From: Nemertoderma westbladi
Lineage: Eukaryota; Animalia; Xenacoelomorpha
NCBI GenBank assembly: GCA_032718475.1
Contig: JAUCBJ010001865.1
Location: 1 to 64,000 of the forward strand
Length of the DNA stretch: 64,000 nucleotides
Direction: 5' to 3'
Shown here one piece after another: positions 27,721-62,900 of the stretch. The translations under genes were made by a program, and so were the position numbers. The number at the start of each line of letters is the position of its first letter. Position 1 is the stretch's first letter. The notes below the pieces were generated by a model, which had not been told where the DNA came from, did no database searches, and worked only from the letters and a program-made list of their open reading frames with translations.

Positions 27721-27798
27721 GTTATATATCCTGAGATTTTTACAGTAAGTATCCCGCCTGTCGAGCGGGCTCCTAATAATTAAAAGAATTGGTATAAG

Positions 27799-32511: not shown

Positions 32512-33793
32512 AAACCCAAACAACGCCCTGGCTCCTAAACCAAACAACGCCCTGGCTCCTAAACCAAACAACGCCCTGGCTCCTAAACCAAACAACGCCC
32601 TGGCTCCTAAACCAAACCACGCCCTGGCTCCTAAACCAAACCACGCCCTGGCTCCTAAACCAAACAACACCCTGGCTCCTAAATCAAACAACGCCCTGGC
32701 TCCTAAACCAAACAACGCCCTGGCTCCTAAACCAAACAACACCCTGGCTCCTAAACCAAACAACGCCCTGGCTCCTAAACCAAACAACGCCCTGGCTCCT
32801 AAACCAAACAACGCCCTGGCTCCTAAACCAAACAACGCCCTGGCTCCTAAACCAAACAACGCCCTGGCTCCTAAACCAAACAACGCCCTGGCTCCTAAAC
32901 CAAACAACGCCCTGGCTCCTAAACCAAACAACGCCCTGGCTCCTAAACCAAACAACACCCTGGCTCCTAAACCAAACAACGCCCTGGCTCCTAAACCAAA
33001 CAACGCCCTGGCTCCTAAACCAAACAACGCCCTGGCTCCTAAACCAAACAACGCCCTGGCTCCTAAACCAAACAACGCCCTGGCTCCTAAACCAAACAAC
33101 GCCCTGGCTCCTAAACCAAACAACGCCCTGGCTCATAAACCAAACAACGCCCTGGCTCCTAAACCAAACAACGCCCTGGCTCCTAAACCAAACAACACCC
33201 TGGCTCCTAAATCAAACAACGCCCTGGCTCCTAAACCAAACAACGCCCTGGCTTCTAAACCAAACAACACCCTGGCTCCTAAACCAAACAACGCCCTGGC
33301 TCCTAAACCAAACAACACCCTGGCTCCTAAACCAAACAACGCCCTGGCTCCTAAACCAAACAACGCCATGGCTCCTAAACCAAACAACACCCTGGCTCCT
33401 AAACCAAACAACGCCCTGGCTCCTAAACCAAACAACGCCCTGGCTCCTAAACCAAACAACGCCCTGGCTCCTAAACCAAACAACACCCTGGCTCCTAAAC
33501 CAAACAACGCCCTGGCTCCTAAACCAAACAACGCCCTGGCTCCTAAACCAAACAACGCCCTGGCTCCTAAACCAAACAACGCCCTGGCTCCTAAACCAAA
33601 CAACGCCCTGGCTCCTAAACCAAACAACGCCCTGGCTCCTAAACCAAACAACGCCCTGGCTCCTAAACCAAACAACGCCCTGGCTCCTAAACCAAACAAC
33701 GCCCTGGCTCCTAAACCAAACAACACCCTGGCTCCTAAACCAAACAACGCCTTGGCTCCTAAACCAAACAACACCCAACCTTCTAACCAAAAC
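32512..33793. repeat. 24-bp minisatellite, about 53 copies
   Basis: Unit aaaccaaacaacgccctggctcct. Confidence 0.97.
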
Positions 33794-34105
33794 AATTCAA
33801 TTCAATTCAATTATGATATTATTTATTATATATATTTATTATTTATAATTTGTATTATTTATTATAATACTACAGACTCAGTCAGTCAGTATCAGTATAC
33901 TCGTTATTAATATATATTTCAAAAATTGTAATTATACTTTAAATTCATTAATAATAATTCGTTTTAAAAAAATGACAGAAAGGTTTTAAAATCATTTACA
34001 AATATTGTTGACCCTGACCCACCCCCAAATAGTGGCAATACGCAAAGGTTTCGCCTACTACCTGGCTAGCCCCACGTTTGAAACATCGGATCTAATTTTG
34101 CTTGC

Positions 34106-34606: not shown

Positions 34607-34795
34607 CTACCTATATCAATTTGGTGTTATGGCCAGCTCTAGTTTAACCAGGGCAAGTCTATATACAAGCATAATAATATTATATAAAGCAAAAAAGTTG
34701 GCCAGAATGTAATTATGCTAAGTAATATAATTCAATATTATATATACATTATTATTATTACTATTACGTTTTTCATTAATTTAATTAAATTTTTC

Positions 34796-36715
34796 TATAG
34801 AATTATATTCCCTAAATGCCGTGGATTTTCAAAATTTTATTTTATTCGAATTAACTTGTTAAAAGATTACTTTGAGTCCTCATTTGTATTGCTATTTCTA
34901 TTTGTACGCCTATTATTCAAGTGGTTCAGTAGCTCAGTCGGTAGAGCGTTGGAAATTATATATGTAGTAGGTATTGAGTTCGAATCCTAGTAAGTGCGAA
35001 TTATTTTTTGTGCAGAATTTCAACTCATTTAAATTGACCGCTACAAATTAAATTGCATTTGTCTGTACCTAGATTAGCCAATGAGACTGTAGTTATTAGA
35101 TTGTAACCAATGTCGTGCAAATTATATATTAGCTGGACCAATAGCTATCTTTAAAAACCTGTTAGAACCTATAGAACAATCGAGAATTTTCTCGATTGAT
35201 TGCGGCACAAATTTGGTATATGAAGGTGCGATTTGTTCATTAGTTATCTAATCAATCACTCACTTATCTTCACTCTCTCTTAACTACTTCTATTCAGAAT
35301 ACATTGTTTATTGTATTATAGTTATTGTTTGATTTTGTAATAAAAGTTAGAAATACTTGTCACATCAGCCTTTTCTATCTGTTTTACCATGATTCACTAC
35401 GGTGAACACTCTTAGGAACAGGATGGCCGGATAGAGATCGGGCCGCAGCAATGAACGGGAACATCAAGGGAATGTAGACAGGAGACAACCCGCAATACCA
35501 CCTTAGTTATTCGCCCATCGCCTGAAAGGTTAGACAGCGTTCGACGCCTTGCTACCTAAGCGTAAGACCAAAGATCAAAGGTAGAAGTAGTGACACGCTG
35601 TAAGCCTAAAATTACATCTTAGGGACTGTACTGTCTTAATTCAGGAAAAAACCACAGTAGACCTTCACATTCCTACGGGGGGGGGGGGGGGGAGAGCGCA
35701 GGCAGAGATACTAGTACGCAGATAGGACGTAGGCACACCGGTACGAAGCATACACATTGGTAGGGTGCAGCAAACTGTACGCCTAACTCTTGCTAAGTGC
35801 AGGTGCGTCTGTGACTATTTGTAGTACAACGGTGTCCATTGCATTAGAACTTGTAGGCTAGGAGGGTTGCTGTGTTTCACCTGAATTAGGATTGTACCGT
35901 TCAGGCGGTAGGGCAGTTTACGACTAGGCGCAAATAAATCGAGGCTATTAGGGATATACTAACATCTACCGTGTCCCCGCCAACGTCCTGATAGGAAGTT
36001 ACCCAGCCTACCTAGGTGACTAAAATTCTAGATAGGACGCCAGGATAGCTATTAGTAACAGTACGCCTACTGTAGTAAACTAACACATTTCTTCTTAGTA
36101 TTAGGGACCTGGTAAATTAAAAATTGCCGAATTCTGGGCGTAGCATTAACCTTATGCCTGAATTTGAGTCCTGGAAATACGCAAGAGGGGAAGGAACCTT
36201 ATTATTCGTGAGTATTGGACCTACAAGTTGCAAAATTAGAATATTCGTAAAATGCACACCGTACCCAGTAATTATATATGTGAAGGAGCAAAACTGCTTT
36301 GACTGTTCAGAATTAACACACGCGCGTTAGAAATTATTTACACCTCAAAATATATAAAAATTAACTTTCGTCCTTACTGTGCTTTGCCCGCTAGTTAGAC
36401 ATCTCCAAATCTCTGCCTCTGTACCTAGCTAGCGTCCCTTTTGCCCAACCATATAAATCACACCGCGGCAAAGTATACGAGCCCTTTAGTCCGTCAGTGA
36501 GTCAGCCTGATTTTAGGATTCGCTGCGCGGGATTTTGTTTTATCGAAGTTTGTCTGCTCATAGACTGTTTTCTGCCTCACCGGTTATAAGAGATCGATAC
36601 TGCAATATATTCGCTTACTTAGAGTTTACTGTTTTGGTGAGAAGGTCGGATTTATGATTTGATTCACAAACTTTACAGTAGGATATTGCAGGTATTGTTA
36701 CCGTCTCTTCGAATA
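34796..36715 (+). repeat. 5' LTR (1920 bp)
   Basis: Runs tatagaattat...ctcttcgaata; matches the 3' LTR except for about 5 substitutions seen by eye and the G-run length (16 vs 22). Confidence 0.95.
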
Positions 36716-37526
36716 GTAGGAATGTGTTTTACTGAACTACGGTTCGGTAGGACTAAAGTTATTTGAAAATTTTGTATTTTGAGGTAAAAGTTTATATTTG
36801 ATTAGCTAAGTGCTAATTTTTTGAAATAAAATTTGATTTGAACCGCGTGTAAAATATTTTTGGAATTGAATACCGGTGTTTAAAAGGGTTTAAATACCAT
36901 ATTGTACCGGTACAAAATTTTCGTAAAAGTAAAACCTAACTCTTTTGTTTTTCAGGATTCAGAACTCATTTCTAGACTGTAACGGGAGCAAGACCGTGTT
37001 TAGCAAGTTTGGGAGATAGATAACCCAACAACTTTGGTTGGGAAAATCGCGCTTCGTCCGCAACGCTGAAAACGGAAAGGTTCACGTCCGGTTTGTATCT
37101 GGGAATCTGTTTTTCTGGAGAATTATTGGAGTGGGTGAGTTTGAAAAGTTGCATAAATAAGTTAGGCATTACCGTATTAGTTAAAATTATTGTGGGTTCC
37201 ACTGTCTCAAGTATTTATGCATTCCGTACGATTTCTTTGTTCATTGCTGAATTAGTCCGTATTATTGTATTTAATTTACCTTTTGATAACGCATATCGTT
37301 ATCCGATTTATTTGTTATAAAATTGGCCGCTAGGCTAATTTTATTATATACTTATTCCGTGACATTTATTTGCTGTAAAATTGGCCGCATAGGCTAATTT
37401 TATCCATCTGCTATAAAATCGGCCGGTAGGCTAATTTTATATGACTGTAATTAGTACCGTTTAGATATAAATACGGTAAACTTGATACTTTGACACTCAC
37501 ATTTTACTTGACTTACAACTACCGAA

Positions 37527-39616
37527 ATGAGTGACAAACAAGACTATACGAAAAATACACAAACCGACTATGACTCATGTGACAGAGATAAGTCAGCAGC
37601 GGAAGAACAACAGGGGAAGACTCGCGAGCCTACCGAACCTACACCGTGTGCGTCACCAGTACATCCAACGGGAGTACCGGATGCCGTAGTACGAGGCAAC
37701 GGCAGGACCGAGGACTTTCTAACTGTTCCGCAACCTAGATACAGGGAAACGGAGATGGTAAGTTCAGTAGGAAGCCAGGAGAGTGTGGTTAGAAGCGTCG
37801 GCGGATACATGGCGCATATTACCAGGAGTATTGGAGAAGGCCAACGCATATTAGACGAGTTGACCGCTCCGATGTCTCGGTTTGAGTTCTACACCCTCCA
37901 GGTTAGAGTACAAAGTAGAGTACATAAGTCCGTAGATAACCTAATTGGTCTACAAGATCTAGCTAGACAGAGACAGGACATGGATACTCAACTTAGAATC
38001 CTCGAGAAACTAATGATCGCTAGAGAGAAACTGATTCAGTTTAAGTCGACGATTAGGCAGATACAACAGGAACAAGCGGACCAGTTGTTAGGTGAGTCAG
38101 TTTCGGACGAATTATTGCAGCCCGAGGAAGAACAGGAACTGTACCGACTAGATGGACAATTAAAACACCTGACGGACCACTTACGTATGTGCGGCGAGGA
38201 TGTCGGAGATTGGGAAACCGTGCCGGAGGCTACGAGGGAAACTTCACTCGCACAAATCGAATCGGCACCGGGAATACTAAATCAACCATTGGTAAGTATT
38301 CGTAGCGAAATCTGCGAGGGAAGTATGGTCACGTCAGAAGTTGCTCGACAACAACAAGAATTCTACCGACAACGACGAGAAATGGAGGAACAAGCTCAAC
38401 TTCTAGTGATGCAGGCAGCAGTAGAGGAAGAGAAGCTACGCGTTGCGAATGTAGCGAGAATCTCTCATCTACAGGAACAAGCTGAATTAGAAGCAGCTGA
38501 AGTAGAAAGGTTAGAGGTAGACATTGCCCAACAAACGGCAGCGGTTGATTTAGCGCGACGAAACGCAGCGGCCGAGTTAGAGCGACAAACGGCAGCGGCG
38601 GAATTAGAGCGACAAACGGCAGCGGCGGAATTAGAGCGAGAAAGGTTAGTTTCGGAAGCACGGGCCGAAATGAAAACACGGCAAATAAAAGCTCAATCCG
38701 CTATACGACAAGTGGAGTTTGAGGCGCAACGACAACAAACGGAACAACGAGAGAAGACAGCTAAACTTCATTTCGAACTCGAGAAGAAGGCGAGAGAATT
38801 AGCCGAAGCCAAGGAAAATCTGGATCTTCTAGCCCGCGATAGATCGATGAGATCTCGTGACGGACATGATTTGGACCAGTTAGAGGTAAGACATCGCCAA
38901 ATTCAGGAACGGAAGAAGGAAGGAAGCGTAGGAGCACCCGGACGGGAACGACAATTAGTAAAAGACTTGTGTCAATGATTCCACAAGTAACTCCTATGTT
39001 TGCACCAATTATGACTAAGAAACCTGTTTCGATTGCGGGTAGTAGTGATATTTCTCCTATCCATGGTGCGACGGAACACAGGTTGGTTATTCCGGACAAA
39101 TTCATACCGTCAAGAGCAACGTCGTCGCCTATTTTGAAAGTCAAGGTAAGTAACCCACCGATTACAGATCGTAGTAGTTTGTTGACTGGACCTGCACTAC
39201 TGACGACAAAACAGGTGAGTCCACCTTTGACACCTAAACCGGTTACGCACTACGAATACCCAATGACGTTTCGACCTACAAGGCCAGTTCAGTTTACATC
39301 GCAATCTACGACTTCGAGGAAGACTTGTGAGCCTACCGAACAACGGAGACCAGTGGATACGCGACCGTTCAACCAGTTTACATCGCAATCTACGACTTCG
39401 AGGAAGACTTGTGAGCCTACCGAACAACGGAGACCAGTGGACGATGTTCCGAAACAAACATTAGAATTCATACGACGCAACGGACGCGAGCACTTCGACC
39501 ACCATATCCAGATGATAGTAGTACTTCGAGCGAATCGGATTACCCGAAACGCGAGGTATTTAGAACAGGGGCGGCCGATGAATATAAACGCGAGCGTTCA
39601 GACAACTCCTTTGTAG
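37527..39616 (+). CDS. N-terminal Gag region (coiled-coil, then Ser/Thr/Pro-rich), split by frameshifts
   Basis: ORF 37527-38978 is Glu/Gln/Ala/Arg-rich with AAAELERQT repeats. It overlaps 38969-39616 in another frame, and the third (gag-pol) frame is open from 39415. Confidence 0.65.
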
Positions 39617-42600
39617 ACAATCCTCCACAGAATACACCAACACAGAAGGCGTTACAACCAACGGACGCAATCAGTACACAACAGTTCGCCGACATCCTGC
39701 GACCAGTTGTTAACAAGTTGGCTCAGATCGAGGAGCGTCTGGAGGAAGTTCAAACCGATAGTTCGAGGAACACTGAATTCGAACACAATAGACACCCGAA
39801 GGAACCACAAAGACCGGTACCTTCAAAACACACATCGTATCAGGGAAAAGCGCCAAGAAGGGAGAACATCAACCAGATTACCAACCAAGGACGCGAAACT
39901 CTGAACGTTGCCGAGGAGATAGCGAAATTCGCAGCTAGACAAGGACTACCGGTGCAACAACCACCTAAGTTTTCCGGTAGCTCAAAACACTGGCACACTT
40001 TCGTAGACTATATCGAATCTCAGATCGCCGTGTGCGCTTTTACATCACGGGAGAAGTTTAATTACCTGCTTCAAACATTGTCGGGAGAACCTAAACGTTT
40101 GGCGGAGACCTTCGTTGGTGTACCGGACGCCTTCGAACTAGCGTACGATCGTTTAACTTCGATCTACGGAGGTACAGTCAGCATGGCCAGGTCAGTGATA
40201 GAGGAACTCTGTAAGGGAGGGGCTATTACTAAACCCGTCGACTTATTGAAACTGGCTGACGAAATAAAGAACGCTATCACTACTTTGAGATCCATTGGAC
40301 AACTTGACTACGGGAATACCCCTACAGTCCTATTAAAGATCATAGGACGACTCCACCATCGACTTCGTCGGGAGTGGAGGAAGATTGAATACCAGCGGGA
40401 AGAGCGGGGTGGATTCTTAAAACTGGAAGATGTGTACCTTTTGATATCCAGGGAAGCAGTGGTAGAAACTCGATCCAACTACACTGACCAGCACATCGTA
40501 GCAGAAGGAATCACCTTGCCATCCTCAAACCGACAAAAACCCCAGACAACATCCACCAAGACGGCCACTTACGCCACATCGACGGAATCACGACAATTCT
40601 CGGACGGTAGTAGGGTATCTGCGCCCATTGGGATAAAACAGACTAGACAGCAACTCAGTGCAGACTTCAGCGGCTGCCAATACTGCGAGCATTTAGGCAA
40701 GCGGTATATCGGTCACAAGTTGAGAGGTTGTCGACAGTTTCGCGAGTTAAACTCGGAAGAACGACGGCTGCAGATACGGCCATTGGACTCTTGTTGGCGG
40801 TGTACGCGACACGGACACGTCCGCAAAGATTGCCCAAATACCGACACTTGTCCATCCTGTGGACGCAACCATGACGGTCTGCTCCACACAGACAGCCACA
40901 CGCCGACAAAACGCTTCGCCAGGGAACACCCGGAAGCAGCAGCGAAATGTAATACGGCCTACAAGAATCAAGAATCGAAAACGACTCCAACTTTCGTGAC
41001 ACATATTAAGGATTGCTTCTCAGAACAATCCGGATCGTCGGACGAAGAGTCAGAAGACGACGACGTATATTCCGATGGAGACGAACAACCATCGATCGCG
41101 CTTCTGACGACTGACCAACTAAAGGGATTCAGCGTAATTCCGATTAAGATTACTGGCACAAAAGGGAGCAAGAGAATCTACGCTATCCTGGATTCAGCCT
41201 CATCTCACAGCTACGTGGATGAGCAGATAGCTGATGTAGTGACGGATCTCAGACAAGGTAAGCGCGTCAGTTACACCGTAAGTAGTATGCACGGACAACG
41301 TGCAATACCAGTGACACGAGTTAAGTTGGACTTAGACACTCTTCTTCCAAAATCGCAACACAGCGAAAAGGAGAGGTCTTTGTTACCCTTTAAGGATTTG
41401 ACTTTTGCGGCCACCAAGGACTTTAGTAACCTACTAGGTCCTGTCCCAGAACAATCCTTGGAGGACCGTAAGTATTTCAGACACCTTGGTGTACCTGAAT
41501 GTCCTGTCAATTATAGATCGGTAGCCATGCTGATCGGGACAGACCAATTCAACCTACATCAAGTGTGGGAAACCAGACCATCGGCAGTCGTAGCGGGAAA
41601 CGCATACGCCTGTAGAACGCCGATAGGGTGGTATACTCGAGCGCCTGTGCGCACACTGGACATAAGTGACGAGGAAGACGATGTACAAAGTACATGTAGT
41701 TTATTAACTACAAATTCAATTCATTCCTTTTCACACGACGTGGACCATACTACCTTACATACAAAACATGACAGACGTGTAACTAGTATGATAAGTCACA
41801 AGGAGCAGCTAATCCACCAGGTGAGTTTAGAACTTGGGGAGAAGACGAGTCAGCCAGAGATTCCATCGACGACAGATGATAACGCCGGAAGGCTTGCGAG
41901 TCTACCTACACCAATAACCTCAACAATGCCCGTCGATATCGATGATGACGCGTTGAGAAATCATCAAGTGGAACAAGCTGTATTGGACAAAGAATTAACG
42001 GAGAAGACTATCAGGTGGTTAGAACAAGATACAGCTGAACCTGGTAGCTACGAACCATGTATGTCGGAACAGGAGAAACAATCTTTGAAGATCATGGAAG
42101 ATACTATCCGCCAGACGAAAGACGGACATTATGAGGTAGGGATGTTATGGCGTAGCCAAAGTCCTAAACTCATAAATAACTATCCACTAGCTTTAAGACG
42201 TTTACACTCGATACGACAACGTCTATTAAAGGACGAGAAAGCCCATCTGCAGTATAACACTCAGATGGAGACGTATTTGTCCAAGGGATACGCTATCCGA
42301 ATGACTAACCCAGAGATAGTAACTGACCAGACATACTACTTGCCACATCATTTCGTGAGACACCCCGACAAACCAGACAAAGTACGTGTAGTCAATGACT
42401 ATGCGGCTCTGTTTGAGGGAATGTCCCTCAATAGCGAGTTGATGGATGGACCAAACATGAATAATTATCTTATGGGGGTGATTATGCGCTTCCGTCAGCG
42501 TCAAGTAGCCTTTACTTGCGACGTCGAAGCTATGTTTCACCAAGTGAGAGCGTTAGAGCAAGACAGAGACAGTTTGAGGTTCCTCTGGTATCCGGAAGGA

Positions 42601-45600
42601 GACTTAAGTCTACCACCGGCGACTTACCAAATGCAAGTTCGCGTTTTCGGTGCCAGAGACAGCCCAAACTGTACAATGTATGCCCTAAAGCAAGCCGCTA
42701 GGGATCAGAAACACCTGTATGACCCAGAGATAATTAAGATTGTGGAACGTGACTTTTACGTCGACGACGGTTTACAGAGTTGCGACACAGTAGAACGTGC
42801 TACAACAGTAGCACATCAATTACGGGACTGCTTAGCGGGCGGAGGTTTTAACCTCACCAAATTCGCCTCAAACAGTGCCGAATTAGTAGACTCATTCGGA
42901 ACGACTGAGCGTGGAGGTGGTGACATAGACCTAGAGTTCGAACCACTACCGACGACCAAGGTGTTGGGGCTCTTTTGGGACCCAAACACGGACAACTTTC
43001 GAGTGAAGGTAAGACTGGACAGTCAAGAAAACACACTGACAAAGAGATCATGCTTGTCAAAATTGAGCCGATTGTTCGATCCATTAGGATTCATCAGTCC
43101 AATAATACTGCAAGCCCGCATTTATATGCGCAGTATTTGGAAGGATGGACTGACATGGGACGAGCCGATCTCATCAGACCAAGTGGACTTATGGAAGACC
43201 TGGGAGGCAGAATTATCTTCGCTAGAGGATTATTCCATACCCAGAGTCTACTTTCCATTACAAACAACATTTCCTGACAGCTTGGAATTACACTGTTTTT
43301 CCGACGCCAGTGACAACGGTTTTGGTGTGGCAGCGTACTTGCGCAGACAAGTAGACTCAGAAGAATTCGATGTTTCGCTCATTACTTCTAAGGCAAAAAC
43401 AATGCCTACTAAGTATATGACGACACCACGAGCTGAGCTACAAGCCGCAACCCTGTCAACCACCATCGTGAACCTTATACAGACGGAACTACAGTCAAGT
43501 TTACAGATATTTTATTGGACTGACGCGATGTTGGTTTTATTTTACATAAACAACGACACACTTGAATTCAAGACATTCGTAGCTAACCGTCGCGCAGAAA
43601 TTCTAGACCGTTCAATAAAGGAAGATTGGCGACATTGTCCCGGACCACAAAACCCAGCCGATATTGCGTCGCGAGGAATGATGCCTGAGGAATTCTGTAA
43701 ACCGGAGAACAAAGAATTTTGGCAACACGGACCCCAATTCTTGCAGAAATCGACACAAGATTGGCCACCGTTATACGACAGCAAGTCTAACACCATCCCT
43801 AAAGACGCGGAAATTAAAAAACCAAAAAAGGGGAAGGCAAAGAAAAAGACGACGGCGGCTAAACTCAAGAAAAAACCGAAGGCGAAATGGAAAGATATAA
43901 CTTCAAAGGTCAAGAACGGAAGACTTGCGAGCCTTTCTACACCAGACATATCGCCAGACATATCGCCAGACGGTCAAACAGACACGTTACTAGACGGTCA
44001 ACCAGACGTTTTGCCAGACATGTCACAAAATGTTCTACCAGACACTAGTGACATATTGACAAATAGTAAAGCCGCAGTTTCCCTATTGGAGCGGCCTTGT
44101 ATTGACAAACTACCAATTTTGACACACTTGAGCAACCATAAGCACGGTGAAACCTCATGTATTACAGATGTGGGTAGTACCTACGCTAATGTAAATACAG
44201 GTGTTACTCTGCGCTCAAGAGACATACCAAACTTGCAACCTATGGTGAGACCCGGGATTAATATCGGCAGAAAATTAAGTTTACCGAAACCCACTGACCC
44301 CATAGAGTTCAAACCACCATTAACGATCGACTTACAAAGTACTGACAATCAAGGTATGAAGACGAAGAAGGACAAATTACTTGTAGACCCGGACGGATCA
44401 ACAGTCAACAAGGGAATACTTACCGGCGGACCCGTGGGCCCTTCTAGTAAATCAAAACCTTCCAAATTCTTTGACTTACCTGATGACGTCACAAATACTC
44501 ACGTCGACCGTATTGTAAACTTAACAGACTCTTGGACAAACGCTTGCCGAAAATTAGCGTGGATTGTACGTTTTGTACAATACGTTAAAGGCAAACGAGA
44601 CTTTACACGTCGACTTACATTGACTGAGATTGACAGGTGTGAGATTAAATTAATTCGCCATTACCAACTGCGATATTTCGCGCGCGAATTCACATCTATA
44701 AATCAAGGTCAACCAATCAAGTCGTCACCAATATTGAGTTGGAGTCCGATAATTTATAATGGCTTAATTTGTCATAAATCTCGGCTTCAGAACATTGACT
44801 TTAACACAAACTTTAGATACCCAATAATAATACCACAGCATCACGAACTACAATGTGCAATGATACTGGACGCACATTTACATCTAAAACACGCTGGAAG
44901 ACACCACTGTCTTTCCTACTTACGTACAAGATTTGTATTAATTAGACCCAGTAAAGCGTTAAGTTCAGTGACACGTACGTGTATTATTTGTAAAAAGGTA
45001 CATTCTAGAATAGGTACCCAAGAAATGAGTGAACTTCCACAAGCACGACTTCAAGCATTCAGACCACCTTTTACAGAGACTGGAATTGATTGCTTTGGTC
45101 CCATACATACGAAACGTGGACGTATACTAGTAAAACGCTGGGGACTGATTTTCACATGTATGTCCAGTAGGGCAGTTCATATTGAACGTGTGATGGATCT
45201 TTCCACCAACGCGTTTATACTAGCATTGCGGCGATTTATCGCTAGACGCGGACTAGTGAAATGCTTGTACTCAGACCAAGGGATAAACTTTGTTGGTGCT
45301 CGAAATGAGATTGCTAGAGCCTTTAAGAAATTAGATCATGATCAAATCTCAAACGAACTACGTCCTCACAAGATTGTTTGGAAGTTTAATCCTCCAGATA
45401 GTCCATGGAGAGGCGGAGTCTGGGAGAGATTGATTAGATCTATAAAGACAGCCATGGCAAAGGTCATTCCAGTAAACCACATATTGACAGACGACCAACT
45501 GACAACACTGTTTGTTGAAATCGAGGCAATACTAAATACTAGACCAATAGTATTAGTACCCGATGACAAACAATCTCAGTTTGCTTTGACACCGGCACAC

Positions 45601-46011
45601 CTGCTTATGCAGGCACCGACCACATTGACGCCTATTTCTATTCCAATAGAAGGCGATAGCTACGGTAGAAAAGCGTGGAAAATCACGCAACTACTAGCTA
45701 ACAAATTCTGGGAAATATGGCAAAACCATTATTTGCCCTCTATTTCTGCCAGAACAAACTGGTAAAATAACACCCGCGCATTAAAGCCGGGAGATCACGT
45801 GCTGTTAGCGGAAGTGAATCTAAAAAGACGCTTCTGGATAACAGGTGTAATTTTAGCCACACATCCATCTATGGATGGAGTGACAAGAACTGTAACGGTA
45901 CGGACAATTGACGGTCGTACAGTAGACAGACCGACTCAACGTCTCGTACTTCTTGAAGAGACTCGTAACGAGTCTGGAGACTACAAATCTCCAACTAATA
46001 TTAGTAAATAA
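39415..46011 (+). CDS. BEL/Pao Gag-Pol polyprotein with a premature stop at 45763-45765
   Basis: Gag PKFSG..W..F region; CCHC knuckles CWRCTRHGHVRKDC and CPSCGRNHDGLLH; protease ILDSAS; RT YYLPHH, DVEAMFHQV, FYVDD; RNase H LHCFSDAS, PRAELQAA, NPADIASRG; integrase HLHLKH...CIIC, GIDCFGP, SDQG, GGVWERLI. The C-terminal LKPGDHVLL...DGVTRTVTVRT continues in frame after TAA. Confidence 0.93.
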
Positions 46012-46672
46012 TTAGGAGTTTACAAATAGATTTCCACGTACCTGTACACTGTAGTAAGGACAGCGGTAGAATTCCATTGTCTTTATATGTGAACATTGAG
46101 GGTAGTACCCTTATGTGTCACATAGGAGCGGGATTTGTAGGTATAAGAAATGGAATTCTACTTGGAACTCACAATATTGAGACATTTTCGAAATTTTAGA
46201 CAATCCATTTGGATTTGAAAAATTTTTAAAATTTTCTCCAGTGAATAGATTTCAGGGTACAGTCGGGTGGAATTTAAAATTAGAGAAACAAGAGAGGAAG
46301 ACTTGCGAGCCTTTCTTAAAATTTTAATTAAATTTTACACGGTCTTGTTTCAATAAGTTACGTCAATAAATAGACTCCCCTATATTTATTACTAATTCTT
46401 GATTGCTTATTTTCTGATAATAGTTTGGGATCAAAAAGTGAGTATTTTAGACTCACAGCCAGTTTAGCCCAAATTCGTTTTTATTTCGGCAAAAAATTTT
46501 AGATAAGAAGCAGCGTGTCATTAAAGAAACCCTAGATCTTAGGCTATGGGTAGGAGGTTAGAGCGTTGTCGAGCCCAAAGGGCAGACGAAACTCTCACGT
46601 CTTCTCACAACTAACTACAAACTCTGTTGTATTCCCTCTAGTAGTAATGATTATGTAACTACACCCCTAATT

Positions 46673-49600
46673 ATGGAGAAAGGGATACAAGGAGAGCCGA
46701 GATGGGGATATGATATCCAAGAGGAGGCAGCAGCGCCATTCGAAAGATTTGGAGCCAAGGACTACACTATATTTGGTATAAAAGAATTATCAGAAAGTAC
46801 TGCGAAACTCGCGAGAACTAAATATGACTCAAATGTATTAAAGAGAAGACAAAATGCATTAAACGAAAGAATCGAAAGTTTGCGCAAAACCTTCAACGAA
46901 CTTTACCCGTACGACGCTTTGTGTGATACGGGAGACATTAGCAAAGACCCCGATACTGAAATTAGTCGTTTGTATCATACCATGCAATACCTGAAGGCGC
47001 ACGAACCTATGCCCGCGGTAAGAGATGAATTTGATGGAATGCATCTTTACAGACGAACTCGAGGGGACGATAGAGAAACCAAGGAAGCATTTTCAGTTTA
47101 TAAACTTTATTATCAATGCGGTTCTTGTATGCGTGAACAACGAAATGCGATTCCGATGCGTTATTCCGATACGATCGCATTTCGTTGTTCACGCATACAA
47201 GAACCGCATTGATAATAAAGTTTATAAACTGAAAATGCTTCCTTGGTTTCTCTATCGTCCCCTCGAGTTCGTCTGTAAAGATGCATTCCATCAAATTCAT
47301 CTCTTACCGCGGGCATAGGTTCGTGCGCCTTCAGGTATTGCATGGTATGATACAAACGACTAATTTCAGTATCGGGGTCTTTGCTAATGTCTCCCGTATC
47401 ACACAAAGCGTCGTACGGGTAATAAGGAAAATCCCGAACCGATATTGGCGAGGTGTTCGAACCATCAACAACTACGCTACCAGGAAGGAGGGTATCCTTT
47501 ATCGAATCCATATCATTCGTTTGCTATGACCGGACCAAAGGCGGGAGAAACTGTCGTTTACCCACCTAAGGTTGTTGAACCCGATGTATTTGAACTTACG
47601 CTGGAAGAGGCGAATCAGTCAACCCGCGAAAAGAAAGAAGCTCTTAGCCTATACAGAGCCTACAAGGCTTTCGAGAAAGGTGAGATGGAAGAATGGGGCG
47701 GAAGACTCGCGAGCCTACCTTACCATTGGACGTCACACGATCAAACTCCAGCTAAGGAGATGACACCGGAAGTTTTCGAGAGCATAAACTTTGCTCAAAA
47801 CGTTATTCAGAGACTACAGATTGCATCCCCGGAGAGGACAAGAGAAATGCAACCATATAGTACTTCAACTACGAAACCATTGAGTACGACACTCAATTTT
47901 CCTATTAGTATACCAGTCCGACAGGATACGACGTACGAAATACCCATCGTGGATCATCCAGAAATCATTTCAAACTTGGAGTTTCTTCCTGCAGTTGTTT
48001 TCAGCGATATGAGTAAGATATATGATTTACGTAGACATATTACTCAAAAGGTCGTGTACAACGTTCCACCTCATATTCAAGACTTTAAGGAACTGGATAG
48101 AGCTGGTGCCGATATAGCTCCGAGTAATTTGAAAGGATATTTAACCAAGACGATTCGTTTATGGATTGGAACCGGAACCTTCGAGTCGGATACAGATATT
48201 GCCGCGGATTGGCGAGGTAAGGTTATTCGTTTCGAAGATGATAAGGACATAGAGAAGATTTGGCAACCTTCGGAAGAATTGTTGGATGAATGGAATAGGA
48301 CGTTTAGATCGTTTCAGGAAAATGGTTACATGTTTTACGATAACGAGGGCGGCAGTCATCAACAGAGTTTGACTTCTAAGACTATACAAATTAGAGCGGC
48401 GGACGGAGTCCTGCACGTTTTCAGTAGACAGAGGAGCGACAAACGAATGCCGATACCTCCAGCGAATACAAAGCGACACCATCTTATCACTGACATAGTA
48501 AAGAAGATGGACCAAGCTTGTAATATCGACGCTAGAATGCTACCGAAGATGGTAAGAAACATGATTTTAGATAAAACTGTTGTAAAGATTGGATCAGGAG
48601 TAAGGGAGGACTTAATTAGCGACTTCGCCGGCATGACGGACAGCGATGACCGACTACCGACACCTTACGTCGACACTCGACCTCTTATTTTGTGGTCTAT
48701 AGAACAGGGATATTTTCGTGAGTATAATACTCAGAAGACTGGAACTGGATACATTTCCTACCTGTTATTCAATTGGGATTATAAGGAAAGTAAGAGAACC
48801 AAGTATATTGAGACTTATGGAGAAGGTGATACTCCAGATATGAGTGAGTTTGAATCACAGCTTAAATGGAGAGGATGCGTGTATTGGGCTATTACGTCAC
48901 CTCCAAGAGCGGTCTTACAATATTATTTAGCAATAGAGTCGTCAGTGAATGTTTGCCTAATCGCCGACATTGTGTCTCGGACTCTCAAAAGACATCCACT
49001 TTGTCTCGGAGAAGATCATACGTTCTACATGGAAGGGAGAATTCATACCGACGTGTTTAGACGATTCCTTGAACCCTTCTACAACTCCGACGCTCAGTGT
49101 AATGCCTTTACTCGAGCAGGATTTAGTATATTTCGAGACGTGTATCTTCGCTGTGCGGGATCTCTTATCGAAAGACCATCTATGTTTACATTGTTACCCT
49201 ATGAAGGAGAACGTATCGTGGAGATTACGGATGAATCACGGCAGACGCGCGCGCCTATCGGTCACCTTGGTGATGATTTCGAAGTAACTACTACGATCAC
49301 TGACGATCCTTTAGAGGAACTTCTTGAGATAGAAAGGAACCTCCCGAAGAAATCTCAGACGGAGATTCGACAACTTGAAGCAACAGATGCTATAGTTTGT
49401 ATACAACCTTCAGAAACCTACCAACCCATAGATCCAGATGATTACGATTATAGTGTGGGAGGAAGCGCTCGACCGATTGGAGATCTTATATACGAACGAG
49501 TGTGGTACCCTGCCAATACGATGTGTGGTAAATGTGGCGTCGCTGGACATCATATGACCAAGTGCAGTGGAAAGCACATTACTACGACTCAGCTAATCTG

Positions 49601-50459
49601 TGGATGGTGTGGAGATCAAGGGTCTCATACCTTTTATACTTGCTGGAGATTTATGGCTCAATGTACTTATTGCAATATAAAGGGACATCGAGCATCTGAA
49701 TGCCAACTAAGAGACATACCTTATGAACACGAATCTGTAAAACTCGTGAGAAAATTATTCGATGAGTGGGAAGATTTAGCCGACGAACATGTATCGGCAC
49801 AAAGAAGACGGTTTCCGATGAGGGCGCATCTTGGATTTTGGGCGGTAAATCCCCAAACGATGATGTCGGAAGGATACATCTCCGCTATGCCCCAATATGA
49901 CGAACTTATCGAGGTAGTCGATATTTTGCCCCACGACAGTGGATTCCGAGTAGTGCGCGAGTATCTGTTACAGATTCACCCGGATAACAAAAACACGTGG
50001 AATTTTCAGAAAGTCGTTAATCGCATCACGTATGGTGAATTCGATCGTTTCCGAACTGAAAAGCGGAATAAAGGAGCTTGGTTAACCGTCGCATGGGCGT
50101 ACCGAGCCGCGTTTTACCACAAACGTATACGAGCGAGCGTATTCGAGGAAGAGGAGGTCCTAGAGGCGACAAATATACCAGCCACTCCGGTTGCGCCGTC
50201 TGCACGTCACCCTCGGGAGGACGGACAGGGTAGGATCATACGGGTCCAGAAAGTGGGCCAACAGTTAAAGAAGTCTATTAATATAGAAGAACGCAAGGGA
50301 GCTGAGCCGACCATTCGAATTACTCGGGATACGGTATCGCTTCCTAGAGAACCAATAGGAGGATCGGGACATACACCAGCTGATCAAAGGGGGCGCAAGC
50401 TACTCTTGGGTCTGCGTCGTCCGCTTCCCGCGCGTTCCCAGACGTTCTACCAACTGTAG
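46673..50459 (+). CDS. Accessory ORF: WRN/EXD-like DEDD 3'-5' exonuclease fold plus three CCHC zinc knuckles; interrupted by a 259-bp insertion
   Basis: ExoI-like FYDNEG (about 48333-48350), LPKMVRNMILDKTVVKIGSGVREDL (ExoII-like), YVDT, QYYLAIE. Knuckles CGKCGVAGHHMTKC, CGWCGDQGSHTFYTC and CTYCNIKGHRASEC (49524-49703). Deleting 47164-47422 joins ORF 46673 in frame to ORF 47445-50459. Confidence 0.75.
46903..47422. repeat. Perfect inverted duplication, 249-bp arms, 22-nt loop
   Basis: 46903-47151 is the reverse complement of 47174-47422; the same peptides appear on both strands in the ORF track. Confidence 0.95.
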
Positions 50460-51548
50460 TGACAACTGATCGGTCACGAGGAATCGGTCGAGGTTTTGGG
50501 ATGCCAAATAGACGAATTTGCGAGGAAATAGTCGCACCGTCTCTCAACGTCCAAACGAAACCAGTGACTCGCCCCACGAGTCCCATATCGCGAGCAAAGT
50601 CACCTGTGCGCAGTTTTCGAGGACGCGGCAGGGCTCGATCAACTAAGCGATAAAAGGGAGGGCAAGGGTGGACGGAAGACTCGTGAGCCTTTCTTATGAT
50701 TTTGTGATTTATTTGAATTTATATTTATATTTGTGTTTATTCCGAACTTAAGCAATTTGTATTGTTCCGAATTTATGAAATTTAGAAAGTTTATATTTAG
50801 AAGGGACTTATATTTGAAAGATTTATGTTTCATATTTGAGATGCAAAGGAGTTTATATTATTCTAAACTTATGCAGTTTATATTTATATTTAGTAAAGAT
50901 TTATATTTGTAAGAATTTATATTTTATATTTGTAATTATTCCGAACTTATGCAATTTATATTGTTCCGAATACTATGCAATTTATATCTTATAAGCAGTA
51001 TTTGTATTTACAGTGAAATAGAAAGTAAGAGTAGATGGAAGACTCGTGTGCCTTTCTTATAGTTTCATTTGTAAAGTGTTATATTTTGTATTTAGAAAGT
51101 TTTATAGTTAGAAAGTTTTGTACTTAGAAAGACTCATATTTGTAATTATTCCGAACTTATGCAATCTACATTTAGGCACGAAAGTATTTGTAATTATTTG
51201 AATTTATGCAATATTTGAGATGCAATAGTAGATGGAAGACTCGCGAGCCTTTCTTATGATTTTCATTTATTTGTATTTGTAATTGTTTGAATTTATGCAA
51301 TATTGAGATGCAATAGATTTATATTGGTGAATTTAATTTAGATTTATATTGTACTTACTCAGTAAAGCCTTAACTACGTAAAGTTTGAATTTGTAATTAT
51401 TTTGTATCGAATCATTATGTAGAAAGGAAGTATTGTTTGAAATTTAATTGTAAATATGTAAGTACGCCCTAAGTATTCTATAGTTTGATTGATTATTGGT
51501 GAAAACCGTATATTTTATGCACGATAATATCCTGTATTCATGGAGCGG

Positions 51549-53474
51549 TATAGAATTATATTCCCTAAATGCCGTGGATTTTCAAAATTTTATTTTATTC
51601 GAATTAACTTGTTAAAAGATTACTTTGAGTCCTCATTTGTATTGCTATTTCTATTTGTACGCCTATTATTCAAGTGGTTCAGTAGCTCAGTCGGTAGAGC
51701 GTTGGAAATTATATATGTAGTAGGTATTGAGTTCGAATCCTAGTAAGTGCGAATTATTTTTTGTGCAGAATTTCAACTCATTTAAATTGACCGCTACAAA
51801 TTAAATTGCATTTGTCTGTACCTAGATTAGCCAATGAGACTGTAGTTATTAGATTGTAACCAATGTCGTGCAAATTATATATTAGCTGGACCAATAGCTA
51901 TCTTTAAAAACCTGTTAGAACCTATAGAACAATCGAGAATTTTCTCGATTGATTGCGGCACAAATTTGGTATATAAAGGTGCGATTTGTTCATTAGTTAT
52001 CTAATCAATCACTCACTTATCTTCACTCTCTCTTAACTACTTCTATTCAGAATACATTGTTTATTGTATTATAGTTATTGTTTGATTTTGTAATAAAAGT
52101 TAGAAATACTTGTCACATCAGCCTTTTCTATCTGTTTTACCATGATTCACTACGGTGAACACTCTTAGGAACAGGATGGCCGGCTAGAGATCGGGCCGCA
52201 GCAATGAACGGGAACATCAAGGGAATGTAGACAGGAGACAACCCGCAATACCACCTTAGTTATTCGCCCATCGCCTGAAAGGTTAGACAGCGTTTGACGC
52301 CTTGCTACCTAAGCGTAAGACCAAAGATCAAAGGTAGAAGTAGTGACACGCTGTAAGCCTAAAATTACATCTTAGGGACTGTACTGTCTTAATTCAGGAA
52401 AAAACCACAGTAGACCTTCACATTCCTACGGGGGGGGGGGGGGGGGGGGGGAGAGCGCAGGCAGAGATACTAGTACGCAGATAGGACGTAGGCACACCGG
52501 TACGAAGCATACACATTGGTAGGGTGCAGCAAACTGTACGCCTAACTCTTGCTAAGTGCAGGTGCGTCTGTGACTATTTGTAGTACAACGGTGTCCATTG
52601 CATTAGAACTTGTAGGCTAGGAGGGTTGCTGTGTTTCACCTGAATTAGGATTGTACCGTTCAGGCGGTAGGGCAGTTTACTACTAGGCGCAAATAAATCG
52701 AGGCTATTAGGGATATACTAACATCTACCGTGTCCCCGCCAACGTCCTGATAGGAAGTTACCCAGCCTACCTAGGTGACTAAAATTCTAGATAGGACGCC
52801 AGGATAGCTATTAGTAACAGTACGCCTACTGTAGTAAACTAACACATTTCTTCTTAGTATTAGGGACCTGGTAAATTAAAAATTGCCGAATTCTGGGCGT
52901 AGCATTAACCTTATGCCTGAATTTGAGTCCTGGAAATACGCAAGAGGGGAAGGAACCTTATTATTCGTGAGTATTGGACCTACAAGTTGCAAAATTAGAA
53001 TATTCGTAAAATGCACACCGTACCCAGTAATTATATATGTGAAGGAGCAAAACTGCTTTGACTGTTCAGAATTAACACACGCGCGTTAGAAATTATTTAC
53101 ACCTCAAAATATATAAAAATTAACTTTCGTCCTTACTGTGCTTTGCCCGCTAGTTAGACATCTCCAAATCTCTGCCTCTGTACCTAGCTAGCGTCCCTTT
53201 TGCCCAACCATATAAATCACACCGCGGCAAAGTATACGAGCCCTTTAGTCCGTCAGTGAGTCAGCCTGATTTTAGGATTCGCTGCGCGGGATTTTGTTTT
53301 ATCGAAGTTTGTCTGCTCGTAGACTGTTTTCTGCCTCACCGGTTATAAGAGATCGATACTGCAATATATTCGCTTACTTAGAGTTTACTGTTTTGGTGAG
53401 AAGGTCGGATTTATGATTTGATTCACAAACTTTACAGTAGGATATTGCAGGTATTGTTACCGTCTCTTCGAATA
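51549..53474 (+). repeat. 3' LTR (1926 bp)
   Basis: Preceded by a short purine-rich ggagcgg (PPT position) and followed by TSD ttttc. Confidence 0.95.
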
Positions 53475-54146
53475 TTTTCATAATTTAGTCGTACTTAATG
53501 TATGTTTCTTAATTACTAACAACTGATATAAAACAAATAATAATTACTGGCAAAATTACAAAAATAAAAGAAAACATGATGATTCCTGCCGGGCATTTTG
53601 CTTTCTTTCCTTAGGTAAAACAAAAAAGAGGCAGATAGGGGGCTGGGGTTGGGGGGTTGGTTGACTGTGGATGGAAACAAAATTCCTTCCGTTCCGGGGT
53701 AAAATTGACTAAAATAACAAGTGATTACTCCAAAAATGTAACAGTAACATGTTACAACGTGCCATGCAACTGTAACCTGCTCCTTTCCCTTAATTTATAA
53801 ATTAGTAACATTTAGACGATATATTAATTCGCCAAGATAGGATTTGTGCCTCTCCTGTCTCAAAATAAGACTCCCTATTATGATGAATAATTACTTTAAA
53901 ACATCAGACAGTATAATATTTTGATGGTGACATTGTGATATTAATGGTTAATATTATATAACAAATTGATGATTGAAATTGATTGATTGAAATTGATTGA
54001 TTGATAGATCTACAATAAAGTTTATAGCACTTTCTATAATTCTGGTTTTTGATATCAGATGATCGAATATTTCAATAATTTCATACAATATAAGTAACAA
54101 TTGATTTTTAGATCTTATGTAGTATTATCATTTCAATAATAATCAA

Positions 54147-59862: not shown

Positions 59863-59999
59863 GTGAGCAAATGTGATGTGCGATATAGTGGTTGGAACTC
59901 GTGAGCCGAAGTTATTGATAGAAACAACTCCGACGTTAATAGTTCTGTATCCCCGTGATCCGAAGTTGATCTTCTTCTGGCAAATACCTCCAACTGGAC
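59836..59999 (-). CDS. ADAM10: ADAM10-like exon carrying the zinc-binding HExxH motif
   Basis: ttgttcag|GT CCA...AGT CCG|gtaagt; 164 bp encoding GPVGGICQKK...INNFGSRVPTTISHITFAHELGHSLGSP. Splicing to the 31312 exon gives HELGHSLGSPHD (ADAM10: SHITFAHEVGHNFGSPHD). Confidence 0.93.
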
Positions 60000-62900
60000 C
60001 TGAACAAAGTAAAAATATAGAAACATAACCAACTGGACCTGTACAAGGTAAAAATATAGAAACATAACCAACTGGACCTGTACAAAGTAAAAATATAGAA
60101 ACATAACCAACTGGACCTGTACAAAGTAAAAATATAGAAACATAACCAACTGGACCTGTACAAAGTAAAAATATAGAAACATAACCAACTGGACCTGTAC
60201 AAAGTAAAAATATAGAAACATAACCAACTGGACCTGTACAAAGTAAAAATATAGAAACATAACCAACTGGACCTGTACAAAGTAAAAATATAGAAACATA
60301 ACCAACTGGACCTGAACAAAGTAAAAATATAGAAACATAACCAACTGGACCTGTACAAAGTAAAAATATAGAAACATAACCAACTGGACCTGTACAAAGT
60401 AAAAATATAGAAACATAACCAACTGGACCTGTACAAAGTAAAAATATAGAAACATAACCAACTGGACCTGTACAAAGTAAAAATATAGAAACATAACCAA
60501 CTGGACCTGTACAAAGTAAAAATATAGAAACATAACCAACTGGACCTGTATAAAGTAAAAATATAGAAACATAACCAACTGGACCTGTACAAAGTAAAAA
60601 TATAGAAACATAACCAACTGGACCTGTACAAAGTAAAAATATAGAAACATAACCAACTGGACCTGTACAAAGTAAAAATATAGAAATATAACCAACTGGA
60701 CCTGTACAAGGTAAAAATATAGAAACATAACCAACTGGACCTGTACAAGGTAAAAATATAGAAACATAACCAACTGGACCTGTACAAAGTAAAAATATAG
60801 AAACATAACCAACTGGACCTGTACAAAGTAAAAATATAGAAACATAACCAACTGGACCTGTGTACAAAGTAAAAATATAGAAACATAACCAACTGGACCT
60901 GTACAAAGTAAAAATATAGAAATATAACCAACTGGACCTGTACAAAGTAAAAATATAGAAACATAACCAACTGGACCTGAACAAAGTAAAAATATAGAAA
61001 CATAACCAACTGGACCTGTACAAAGTAAAAATATAGAAATATAACCAACTGGACCTGTACAAGGTAAAAATATAGAAACATAACCAACTGGACCTGTACA
61101 AAGTAAAAATATAGAAACATAACCAACTGGACCTGTACAAAGTAAAAATATAGAAACATAACCAACTGGACCTGTACAAAGTAAAAATATAGAAACATAA
61201 CCAACTGGACCTGTACAAAGTAAAAATATAGAAACATAACCAACTGGACCTGTATAAAGTAAAAATATAGAAACATAACCAACTGGACCTGTACAAAGTA
61301 AAAATATAGAAACATAACCAACTGGACCTGAACAAAGTAAAAATATAGAAACATAACCAACTGGACCTGTACAAAGTAAAAATATAGAAATATAACCAAC
61401 TGGACCTGTACAAGGTAAAAATATAGAAACATAACCAACTGGACCTGTACAAGGTAAAAATATAGAAACATAACCAACTGGACCTGTACAACGTAAAAAT
61501 ATAGAAACATAACCAACTGGACCTGTACAAAGTAAAAATATAGAAACATAACCAACTGGACCTGAACAAAGTAAAAATATAGAAACATAACCAACTGGAC
61601 CTGTACAAAGTAAAAATATAGAAATATAACCAACTGGACCTGTACAAGGTAAAAATATAGAAACATAACCAACTGGACCTGTACAAAGTAAAAATATAGA
61701 AACATAACCAACTGGACCTGTACAAAGTAAAAATATAGAAACATAACCAACTGGACCTGTACAAAGTAAAAATATAGAAACATAACCAAATGGACCTGTA
61801 CAAAGTAAAAATATAGAAACATAACCAACTGGACCTGTATAAAGTAAAAATATAGAAACATAACCAACTGGACCTGTACAAAGTAAAAATATAGAAACAT
61901 AACCAACTGGACCTGAACAAAGTAAAAATATAGAAACATAACCAACTGGACCTGTACAAAGTAAAAATATAGAAATATAACCAACTGGACCTGTACAAGG
62001 TAAAAATATAGAAACATAACCAACTGGACCTGTACAAGGTAAAAATATAGAAACATAACCAACTGGACCTGTACAAAGTAAAAATATAGAAACATAACCA
62101 ACTGGACCTGTACAAAGTAAAAATATAGAAACATAACCAACTGGACCTGAACAAAGTAAAAATATAGAAACATAACCAACTGGACCTGTACAAAGTAAAA
62201 ATATAGAAACATAACCAACTGGACCTGTACAAGGTAAAAATATAGAAACATAACCAACTGGACCTGTACAACGTAAAAATATAGAAACATAACCAACTGG
62301 ACCTGTACAAAGTAAAAATATAGAAACATAACCAACTGGACCTGTGTACAAAGTAAAAATATAGAAACATAACCAACTGGACCTGTACAAAGTAAAAATA
62401 TAGAAATATAACCAACTGGACCTGTACAAAGTAAAAATATAGAAACATAACCAACTGGACCTGTACAAAGTAAAAATATAGAAACATAACCAACTGGACC
62501 TGAACAAAGTAAAAATATAGAAACATAACCAACTGGACCTGTACAAAGTAAAAATATAGAAACATAACCAACTGGACCTGTACAAGGTAAAAATATAGAA
62601 ACATAACCAACTGGACCTGTACAAAGTAAAAATATAGAAACATAACCAACTGGACCTGTACAAAGTAAAAATATAGAAACATAACCAACTGGACCTGTAC
62701 AAAGTAAAAATATAGAAACATAACCAACTGGACCTGTACAAGGTAAAAATATAGAAACATAACCAACTGGACCTGTACAAAGTAAAAATATAGAAACATA
62801 ACCAACTGGACCTGTACAAAGTAAAAATATAGAAATATAACCAACTGGACCTGTACAAGGTAAAAATATAGAAACATAACCAACTGGACCTGTACAAGGT

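Follow-up and report, generated by a model that had tools for sequence, protein, structure and literature searches.

We present the discovery of a 20-nucleotide near-palindrome that occurs eleven times, always in the same orientation, within one BEL/Pao retrotransposon of the xenacoelomorph Nemertoderma westbladi, and that is a real, sharply delimited and so far unexplained cis element. The retrotransposon lies in a 64,000-nucleotide stretch (positions 1 to 64,000 of contig JAUCBJ010001865.1, assembly GCA_032718475.1; hereafter the window) and measures 18,679 bp (18.7 kb), both long terminal repeats (LTRs) included. The family to which it belongs is both numerous and polymorphic in organism A, with 14,439 family contigs from X1, 6,644 from X3 and 299 from X4; a further 42 come from X5 (organism B). 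The initial annotation had listed ten copies of the motif, and a motif scan of the window recovered all ten at the same starts on the + strand; we add an eleventh, at 49240, which had been overlooked and which lies midway in the widest gap between copies:

37615..37634, + strand: copy 1, in open reading frame (ORF) 1, where it reads KTREPT
39318..39337, + strand: copy 2, in ORF2, where it reads KTCEPT
39402..39421, + strand: copy 3, the 84-nt duplicate of copy 2
41887..41906, + strand: copy 4, in a pol linker 5' of the reverse transcriptase (RT), with G6.U15; the best predicted partner for other copies
43918..43937, + strand: copy 5, in a lineage-specific insertion that separates RNase H from integrase
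46296..46315, + strand: copy 6, intergenic
47700..47719, + strand: copy 7, in the accessory ORF, where it reads GRLASLP
49240..49259, + strand: copy 8 (new), in a linker of the accessory ORF, with U8-A13 replaced by G8-C13
50674..50693, + strand: copy 9, in the 3' untranslated region (UTR)
51037..51056, + strand: copy 10, in the 3' UTR, carrying T at position 13, where almost the whole of the family contig depth has G
51234..51253, + strand: copy 11, in the 3' UTR

A weight matrix derived from ten copies was run over the entire window with a reporting level of 8 bits. The eleven copies score 29.6-36.8 bits and the next independent site 8.8 bits. The LTRs and flanks, where no copy had been noticed, hold no site of at least 8 bits, and neither does the remainder of the other 49 kb of the window; the matches on the minus strand are the same near-palindromic sites read in reverse, and the sense-only placement claimed for the motif extends to all eleven copies, each inside the element. 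Eight of the ten originally listed copies retain the core exactly, with one change at 51037 and two at 41887, against a chance expectation of about 1e-7 exact matches in the 14.8-kb internal region. Positions 1, 2, 4, 5, 7, 10, 12, 14, 16, 17 and 20 are unchanged in all ten copies compared, and conservation is 60-100% over positions 1-20, save for an A/T split at position 18, as opposed to 30-70% outside; both end positions are invariant, and the conserved block begins and ends exactly with the near-palindrome. We found no further dispersed repeat family in the internal region. The copies at 39318 and 39402 represent a single 84-nt tandem duplication, and the three 3' UTR copies have similar flanks within a repetitive 3' UTR; therefore, the eleven copies amount to only about 8-10 independent placements. 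The distance between copies is mostly 1.4-2.5 kb, and together they span 13.6 kb.

The motif had been regarded as a nucleotide-level signal, and its sharp ends, its frame-independent placement and the position of its pol copies in poorly aligned linkers bear this out. Seven of the eleven copies are within ORFs and four are non-coding; the coding copies use two reading frames, and the third frame, contrary to an unrestricted reading of the earlier claim of differing frames, is unused. A protein-level motif, GRLASL, was set aside, as four coding copies are in another frame and four copies are non-coding. Both pol copies are situated in linkers to which few of the 120 homologues can be aligned (no more than 12% and 1%, respectively); ranked by identity, these linkers fall into the bottom 20% and 12% of windows. 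Comparisons with known RNA families in Rfam matched none of the copies; the only hits were on the long inverted duplication, together with one weak match to a snoRNA. Two further identities for the motif, a Helitron-type end hairpin and a duplicate of the 3' polypurine tract, were set aside on the basis of sequence.

The manner in which the copies vary suggests that the signal probably acts at the RNA level. At pairs 2.19, 9.12 and 10.11 all changes preserve G-C or G.U on the sense strand, whereas the same changes disrupt pairing on the antisense strand. Pair 8.13 is U-A in nine of the eleven copies, G-C at 49240 and a mismatch in the window copy at 51037; there, the family contigs have G at position 13, creating U.G (by depth, 18325/18528 in X1, 3994/4019 in X3 and 390/390 in X4). 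As the C/U changes at the three pairs and the family G at 51037 keep G.U on the sense strand only, an RNA signal is favored. Ten copies have A.C at pair 6.15, and the copy at 41887 has G.U, as first annotated; this pair is never Watson-Crick. The copies ending in ACC do keep both closing G-C pairs, as had been proposed, but they additionally contain an A.A mismatch at 3.18. Among ten copies, which are not independent, the loop shows seven C-to-T changes and not a single G-to-A. We set aside a GNRA interpretation of the loop (Y-GYGA-G), given that the copies at 49240 and 51037 violate GNRA yet retain pair 8.13.

Several observations weigh against the RNA-level interpretation. Covariation is no better than in shuffles, 123 of 500 of which reach the observed score, and overall pairing is nearly equal on the two strands (85% of cells for sense versus 80% for antisense). 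The near-invariant A6.C15 corresponds to an ordinary G.U on the antisense strand, where most of the hairpins are more stable. Changes that are exclusively C-to-T would be equally expected from any protein requiring both guanines, and the double change at 41887 could be a single micro-inversion. Polymorphism gives little further help: in the 651-nt 3' UTR the 60 motif bases hold one of 12 listed substitutions and none of the 12 indels shown (16 in total), with about two events expected by hand count, so that the depletion relative to the flanks is not significant. None of the 40 variable sites shown from the family contigs (998 in total) is in a motif, a number too small to count, and the unchanged copy at 51234 in X5 lies within sequence of 98% identity, covered at depth 6, and is hence uninformative.

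The hairpin originally drawn for the motif is the minimum-energy fold for nine of the ten original copies in isolation, but at only -0.4 to -4.9 kcal/mol; within 220 nt of context the pair probabilities do not exceed 0.08, and a stable stand-alone hairpin is not borne out by these calculations, which omit protonated A.C pairs. In contrast to these hairpin energies, duplexes between different copies are predicted at -8 to -32 kcal/mol, with the copy at 41887 as the best partner. Such duplexes can form because the Y-G-Y-G loop pairs with itself via G.U, as it does in all eleven copies. When internal 20-mers are ranked by self-duplex energy, seven copies are within the top 1.2% and an eighth within the top 3.1%, and a local fold of 720 nt pairs 50674 with 51234 at a probability of about 0.97. 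As any near-palindrome forms duplexes, this denotes a capacity and is not proof of use.

Judged by its Gag and Pol domains in the order protease, RT, RNase H and integrase (PR-RT-RH-IN), the host of the motif is a member of the Belpaoviridae (BEL/Pao), with the following organization:

34791..34795, no strand: left target-site duplication TTTTC, from the sequence
34796..36715, + strand: 5' LTR of 1920 nt, ending in TAT...ATA and not TG...CA; differs from the 3' LTR by five substitutions and the length of a G run
35666..35676, + strand: LTR 11-mer, the exact complement of the 11 nt after the LTR and followed by the G run; a possible self-primer
36716..36726, + strand: position of the primer-binding site, whose start is not TGG, unlike a tRNA-primed site
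37135..46641, + strand: GT-AG intron whose removal would join the leader to the accessory ORF, containing six of the eleven copies; from one X4 contig (depth 211, side 29)
37310..37445, + strand: three related tandem hairpins in the 5' leader, with predicted folds of -11 to -15 kcal/mol
37527..38978, + strand: ORF1, the N-terminal ORF of the gag region, with no Pfam match; its stop overlaps the ORF2 ATG
38870..39616, + strand: ORF2, a low-complexity frame between ORF1 and gag-pol
39415..45765, + strand: gag-pol ORF with DUF1759, Cys/His knuckles, RT/RNase H (Peptidase_A17), an integrase zinc domain and DUF5641
46673..50459, + strand: accessory gene, split in the window copy by the inverted duplication; DEDDy-like region at about 48200-49000 and three Cys/His knuckles at about 49520-49710
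46903..47422, no strand: perfect inverted duplication of 249 nt, its arms 22 nt apart, interrupting the accessory gene
51549..53474, + strand: 3' LTR of 1926 nt, ending in TAT...ATA, as compared with the 5' LTR
53475..53479, no strand: right target-site duplication TTTTC, from the sequence

The Pfam matches to Peptidase_A17 (E=2e-42) and DUF1759 (E=6e-11) are joined by below-cut-off matches to the integrase zinc domain and DUF5641, and RT/RNase H is 40-44% identical to the best BEL/Pao polyprotein homologues. Like the Belpaoviridae, which are described as 4.2-10 kb long with LTRs of 0.2-1.2 kb and the PR-RT-RH-IN order (PMC8742986), the element has flanking LTRs and a 5-bp target-site duplication along with the gag-pol domains and their order. 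It differs from them in its length of 18.7 kb, its 1.9-kb LTRs, the lack of a tRNA-type primer site and a putative exonuclease-knuckle gene in place of env (PMC8742986); the size range is descriptive, and the enzyme domains still place the element there. Local duplications are numerous in it (84, 27 and 12 nt, besides the 3' UTR repeats). The 249-nt inverted duplication is missing from the covering family contigs of X1 and X3, and it would yield a long hairpin RNA if real or else be an assembly fold-back. At 38975-38978 the stop of ORF1 and the start of ORF2 overlap as ATGA, an arrangement resembling termination-reinitiation, and at 39415-39616 ORF2 overlaps gag-pol in another frame, which may be programmed or the mark of a broken frame. 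The U3 region at 51670-51750 and its 5' LTR counterpart contain a tRNA-like A-box/B-box sequence, in which ARAGORN finds no tRNA.

The 18-nt primer site for tRNA-Arg or tRNA-Gly expected of the family was not seen, the sequence after the LTR having no TGG start (no search with a tRNA library was made). The LTR 11-mer has a complementarity that only 3 of 5000 random internal 18-mers reach, with six additional pairs predicted, and it is followed by a G run that varies in length; this arrangement has the geometry required for self-priming, and the element may prime reverse transcription from its own LTR and not from a tRNA. Self-priming has been reported in the Tf1/Sushi, Tcn1 and TAR elements (PMC6317226, excerpt); in contrast to these, the 11-mer here is seemingly inside the transcript and not at its 5' end. 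A first GT-AG intron, at 35529-36955 and extending from the LTR interior to the leader, is suggested by the loose end of one X4 contig; spliced RNA would then contain neither the G run nor the region of the primer site.

The motif is not general to BEL/Pao, as seven distant BEL loci in genome contigs, one complete with both LTRs, contain no motif of at least 10 bits; nor do they contain a homologue of the accessory protein. These loci are partial and 36-42% identical, and in one of them, L028, the LTR termini are TG...CA, unlike TAT...ATA here. Exact scanning of viral contigs produced no matches. Metagenome contigs produced 26 exact-motif loci, all single-copy at high score, mostly GC-rich and none with BEL or accessory homology; accordingly, we rejected them as relatives and took them for chance or bacterial palindromes. 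Searches for relatives in DNA context recovered none for the accessory protein, and none for pol in viral contigs. One contig of about 80% identity (X1 record 4, X3 record 10) loses alignment at 43733 and resumes at the start of the copy at 43918, a lead that divergent subfamilies retain the motif.

As to function, we tentatively favor, at somewhat less than an even degree of belief, dispersed RNA tags that the zinc knuckles of Gag would bind and anneal, thereby condensing and dimerizing an oversized genome for packaging. The CCHC knuckles would read the two invariant guanines of the loop, consistent with the preference of nucleocapsid for unpaired guanines (PMC7601788, excerpt). The weak hairpin would be metastable, and nucleocapsid could convert it to an extended duplex, whether inside a single RNA or joining two RNAs; palindromes of Ty1 are candidate dimerization sites (PMC3592414, excerpt), and RNA viruses have dispersed packaging signals (PMC6281560, excerpt). 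At roughly double the maximum length described for its family, the element would require a site every 1.4-2.5 kb. The copies might have spread through template switches of the reverse transcriptase and persisted wherever the protein tolerates an insertion.

This proposal has to contend with several findings. The evenness of spacing for all eleven copies is not significant by coefficient of variation (CV; p=0.12), the largest gap giving p=0.046; a value of p=0.002 is obtained only when clusters are merged post hoc. The copies at 39318, 39402 and 51037 (window version) are ordinary self-duplexers, at the 38th percentile, and the local fold shows no pairing between 39318 and 39402. Moreover, five of the eleven copies are 3' of the splice acceptor and would hence be retained in the spliced accessory RNA; this acceptor was seen in one X4 contig, from a run labelled "DNA?". 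As five copies would persist in spliced RNA, the motif alone could not select the full-length genome, and the idea of a tag selecting only that genome is weakened; some other feature would have to select the genome, a candidate being the set of three leader hairpins at 37310-37445.

The accessory gene provides the next candidate reader. Its product had been described as a knuckle-nuclease, and weak but concordant evidence indicates that a DEDDy-type exonuclease with zinc knuckles looks right. The homologues P0002, P0004 and P0125, all unnamed singletons, have the same exonuclease and triple-knuckle layout, and profiles built on the homologues match EXD2 (E=0.004), WRN (E=0.03) and Lin28 knuckles (E=0.006); the Atlas places P0002 near DNA_pol_A_exo1 and zf-CCHC (0.87), which is a lead only. 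The D-x-E and KxGS...D blocks align with the homologues, and the third motif is Y-x3-E where DEDDy enzymes are expected to have Y-x3-D. A single-sequence homologue search with the protein returned no match, Pfam gave a weak zinc knuckle and no VANC-type match for the ORF, and an AlphaFold model from a four-sequence alignment has a predicted local distance difference test (pLDDT) score of 32. The GT-AG joint links the leader to a position just 5' of the accessory ATG. Rev-type retroviral proteins are made from spliced RNA and act in export. By analogy, the motif might be a self-RNA tag for this protein, made from the spliced RNA, which, tethered every 2 kb, would shield, export or de-silence the transcripts, for instance by trimming small RNAs or 3' tails; we consider this less likely than annealing by Gag, at perhaps one chance among several. 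Its attractions are the nuclease and knuckles just described, the joint that runs to the accessory ATG, the occurrence of copies in spliced and unspliced RNA alike and the precedent of a knuckle-aided RNase D (PMC7797062, excerpt). The seven distant BEL loci lack both protein and motif, but since they are partial and 36-42% identical the double absence says little; catalysis is putative, and self-complementarity across the loop is left unexplained.

DEDDy exonucleases encoded by a third gene (ORF3) are known from the bdelloid rotifer elements Juno and Vesta (PMC5408684, excerpt), and an RNase D aided by zinc knuckles or fingers from the trypanosome TbRND (PMC7797062, excerpt). The present protein is like the former in being a putative RNase D-like exonuclease specified by a third gene and like the latter in the predicted fusion of exonuclease and zinc fingers; it differs from both in its BEL/Pao host element, the three knuckles after the nuclease and its length of about 1000 aa. 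The excerpted passages on Juno, Vesta and TbRND mention no cognate repeated motif, the word "hairpin" occurring 0 times in them.

The initial annotation likened the motif to the targets of VANC proteins in VANDAL transposons, proteins that bind double-stranded DNA and remove methylation. The targets measure 8-9 nt, are double-stranded DNA and crowd in tandem arrays within non-coding regions (PMC5735166, excerpt). Both systems feature a family-specific motif in one orientation and an element with an accessory gene; unlike VANC targets, the sites here are palindromes at low density, many of them in coding sequence, and their variation resembles that of RNA pairs (PMC5735166, excerpt). With 20-nt sites mostly kilobases apart and seven of eleven within ORFs, a VANC-like DNA reading is not supported as the main model. 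In its more general form, a double-stranded DNA site for a dimeric protein, of the host or the element, that maintains activity over the full extent of the provirus, it appears unlikely. A near-palindrome of 20 bp with like half-sites and uniform orientation, as with VANC motifs (PMC5735166, excerpt), is what such a protein might use, and CpG is not depleted in the element (observed/expected 1.17 versus 0.68 in a flank), although a young element would look identical. Conversely, the one-directional loop changes (in ten non-independent copies) and U.G at 8.13 are strand-asymmetric, the symmetric replacement of T8/A13 by G8/C13 would harm both half-sites, none of the copies is in the LTRs, VANC motifs are short, dense and non-coding, and CCHC knuckles bind single strands (PMC7601788, excerpt).

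An RNA stem-loop for a host RNA-binding protein, in nuclear export or germ-line transport, accommodates the whole of the RNA-level evidence and the presence of copies in both RNA forms equally well. Transposon RNAs can carry localization signals. The 15 nt 5' of the copies are purine-rich (105/150 versus 78.5 expected under a local null, p=5e-5, in a window chosen post hoc), as expected for an exposed site. With no Rfam match and two knuckle arrays in the element itself, we nevertheless think it doubtful, marginally more so than a DNA site. Least probable, and by some way remote, is a by-product or aid of reverse transcription, in which the palindrome was pasted almost neutrally at RT pauses or template switches or marks internal plus-strand priming behind purine tracts: the many local duplications, the upstream purine tracts, the copies in unconstrained linkers and one X4 contig passing from the end of the 37615 copy into the sequence after 47700 (a copy-to-copy jump or a mapping artefact) fit it, but the flanks are unrelated despite exact ends, the changes preserve pairs, the copies are unlike the tract before the 3' LTR, there is no second dispersed family internally, and repeat clusters in the seven control spans number at most three, at chance level, as against 4 over gag-pol and 9 over the whole internal region here (larger clusters in L028 and L031, outside the gag-pol spans, were left out by this restriction).

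Elsewhere in the window we observed a 911-aa single open frame at 6926-9661, intronless over this span, for an importin-beta-family HEAT protein; tandem arrays at 59990-64000 and 33000-33800, namely a satellite with a 39-nt unit repeated about 100 times and an array with a 24-nt unit; and three long open frames at 26488-27783 that suggest another. An RT ORF (RVT_1) of a different retroelement, free of motif copies, is found at 17839-19335, and RVT_1 element fragments recur near 3.9-4.6, 12.9-13.2 and 54.1-54.8 kb.

Returning to the annealing of tags by Gag knuckles, we note that it draws on two known kinds of signal and coincides with neither. Like the packaging signals of single-stranded RNA (ssRNA) viruses and hepatitis B virus (HBV), the motif is common to many stem-loops across a genome, coding regions included (PMC6281560, excerpt), here as hairpins that are marginal by prediction; unlike those signals, it belongs to an LTR retrotransposon and consists of 20-mers that are almost the same and whose loops are self-complementary, and its binding by capsid or nucleocapsid is putative. 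Like the retroviral dimerization initiation site (DIS) and PAL1-3 of Ty1, it is self-complementary and could switch from hairpin to intermolecular duplex (PMC3592414, excerpt), the loop and the extended duplex being predictions. Those sites, as described in the same excerpt, number one to three, measure 6 nt and lie close to the 5' end, unlike eleven 20-nt sites over 13.6 kb, and the weight-matrix scan found no motif copy in the 5' leader. Packaging and dimerization signals of retroelements are, in the excerpts consulted, described near the 5' end, and in listings of the open-access literature we found no report of a dispersed internal palindrome in an LTR retrotransposon.

Replication and packaging of BEL/Pao elements have been called poorly understood (PMC8742986). 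It is plausible, in an evenly balanced judgement, that a giant BEL/Pao lineage evolved a genome-wide RNA address code, in which a self-complementary 20-nt tag placed about every 2 kb, through the element's own genes, is read by an element-encoded knuckle protein that stitches or protects the RNA over its full length, with the element maybe priming itself from its LTR. The eleven near-identical sites, with their natural variants, constitute a small ready ligand for studying how a retroelement genome of about twice the upper size of its family is recognized and condensed. They also offer a way into what exonuclease-knuckle third genes act on.

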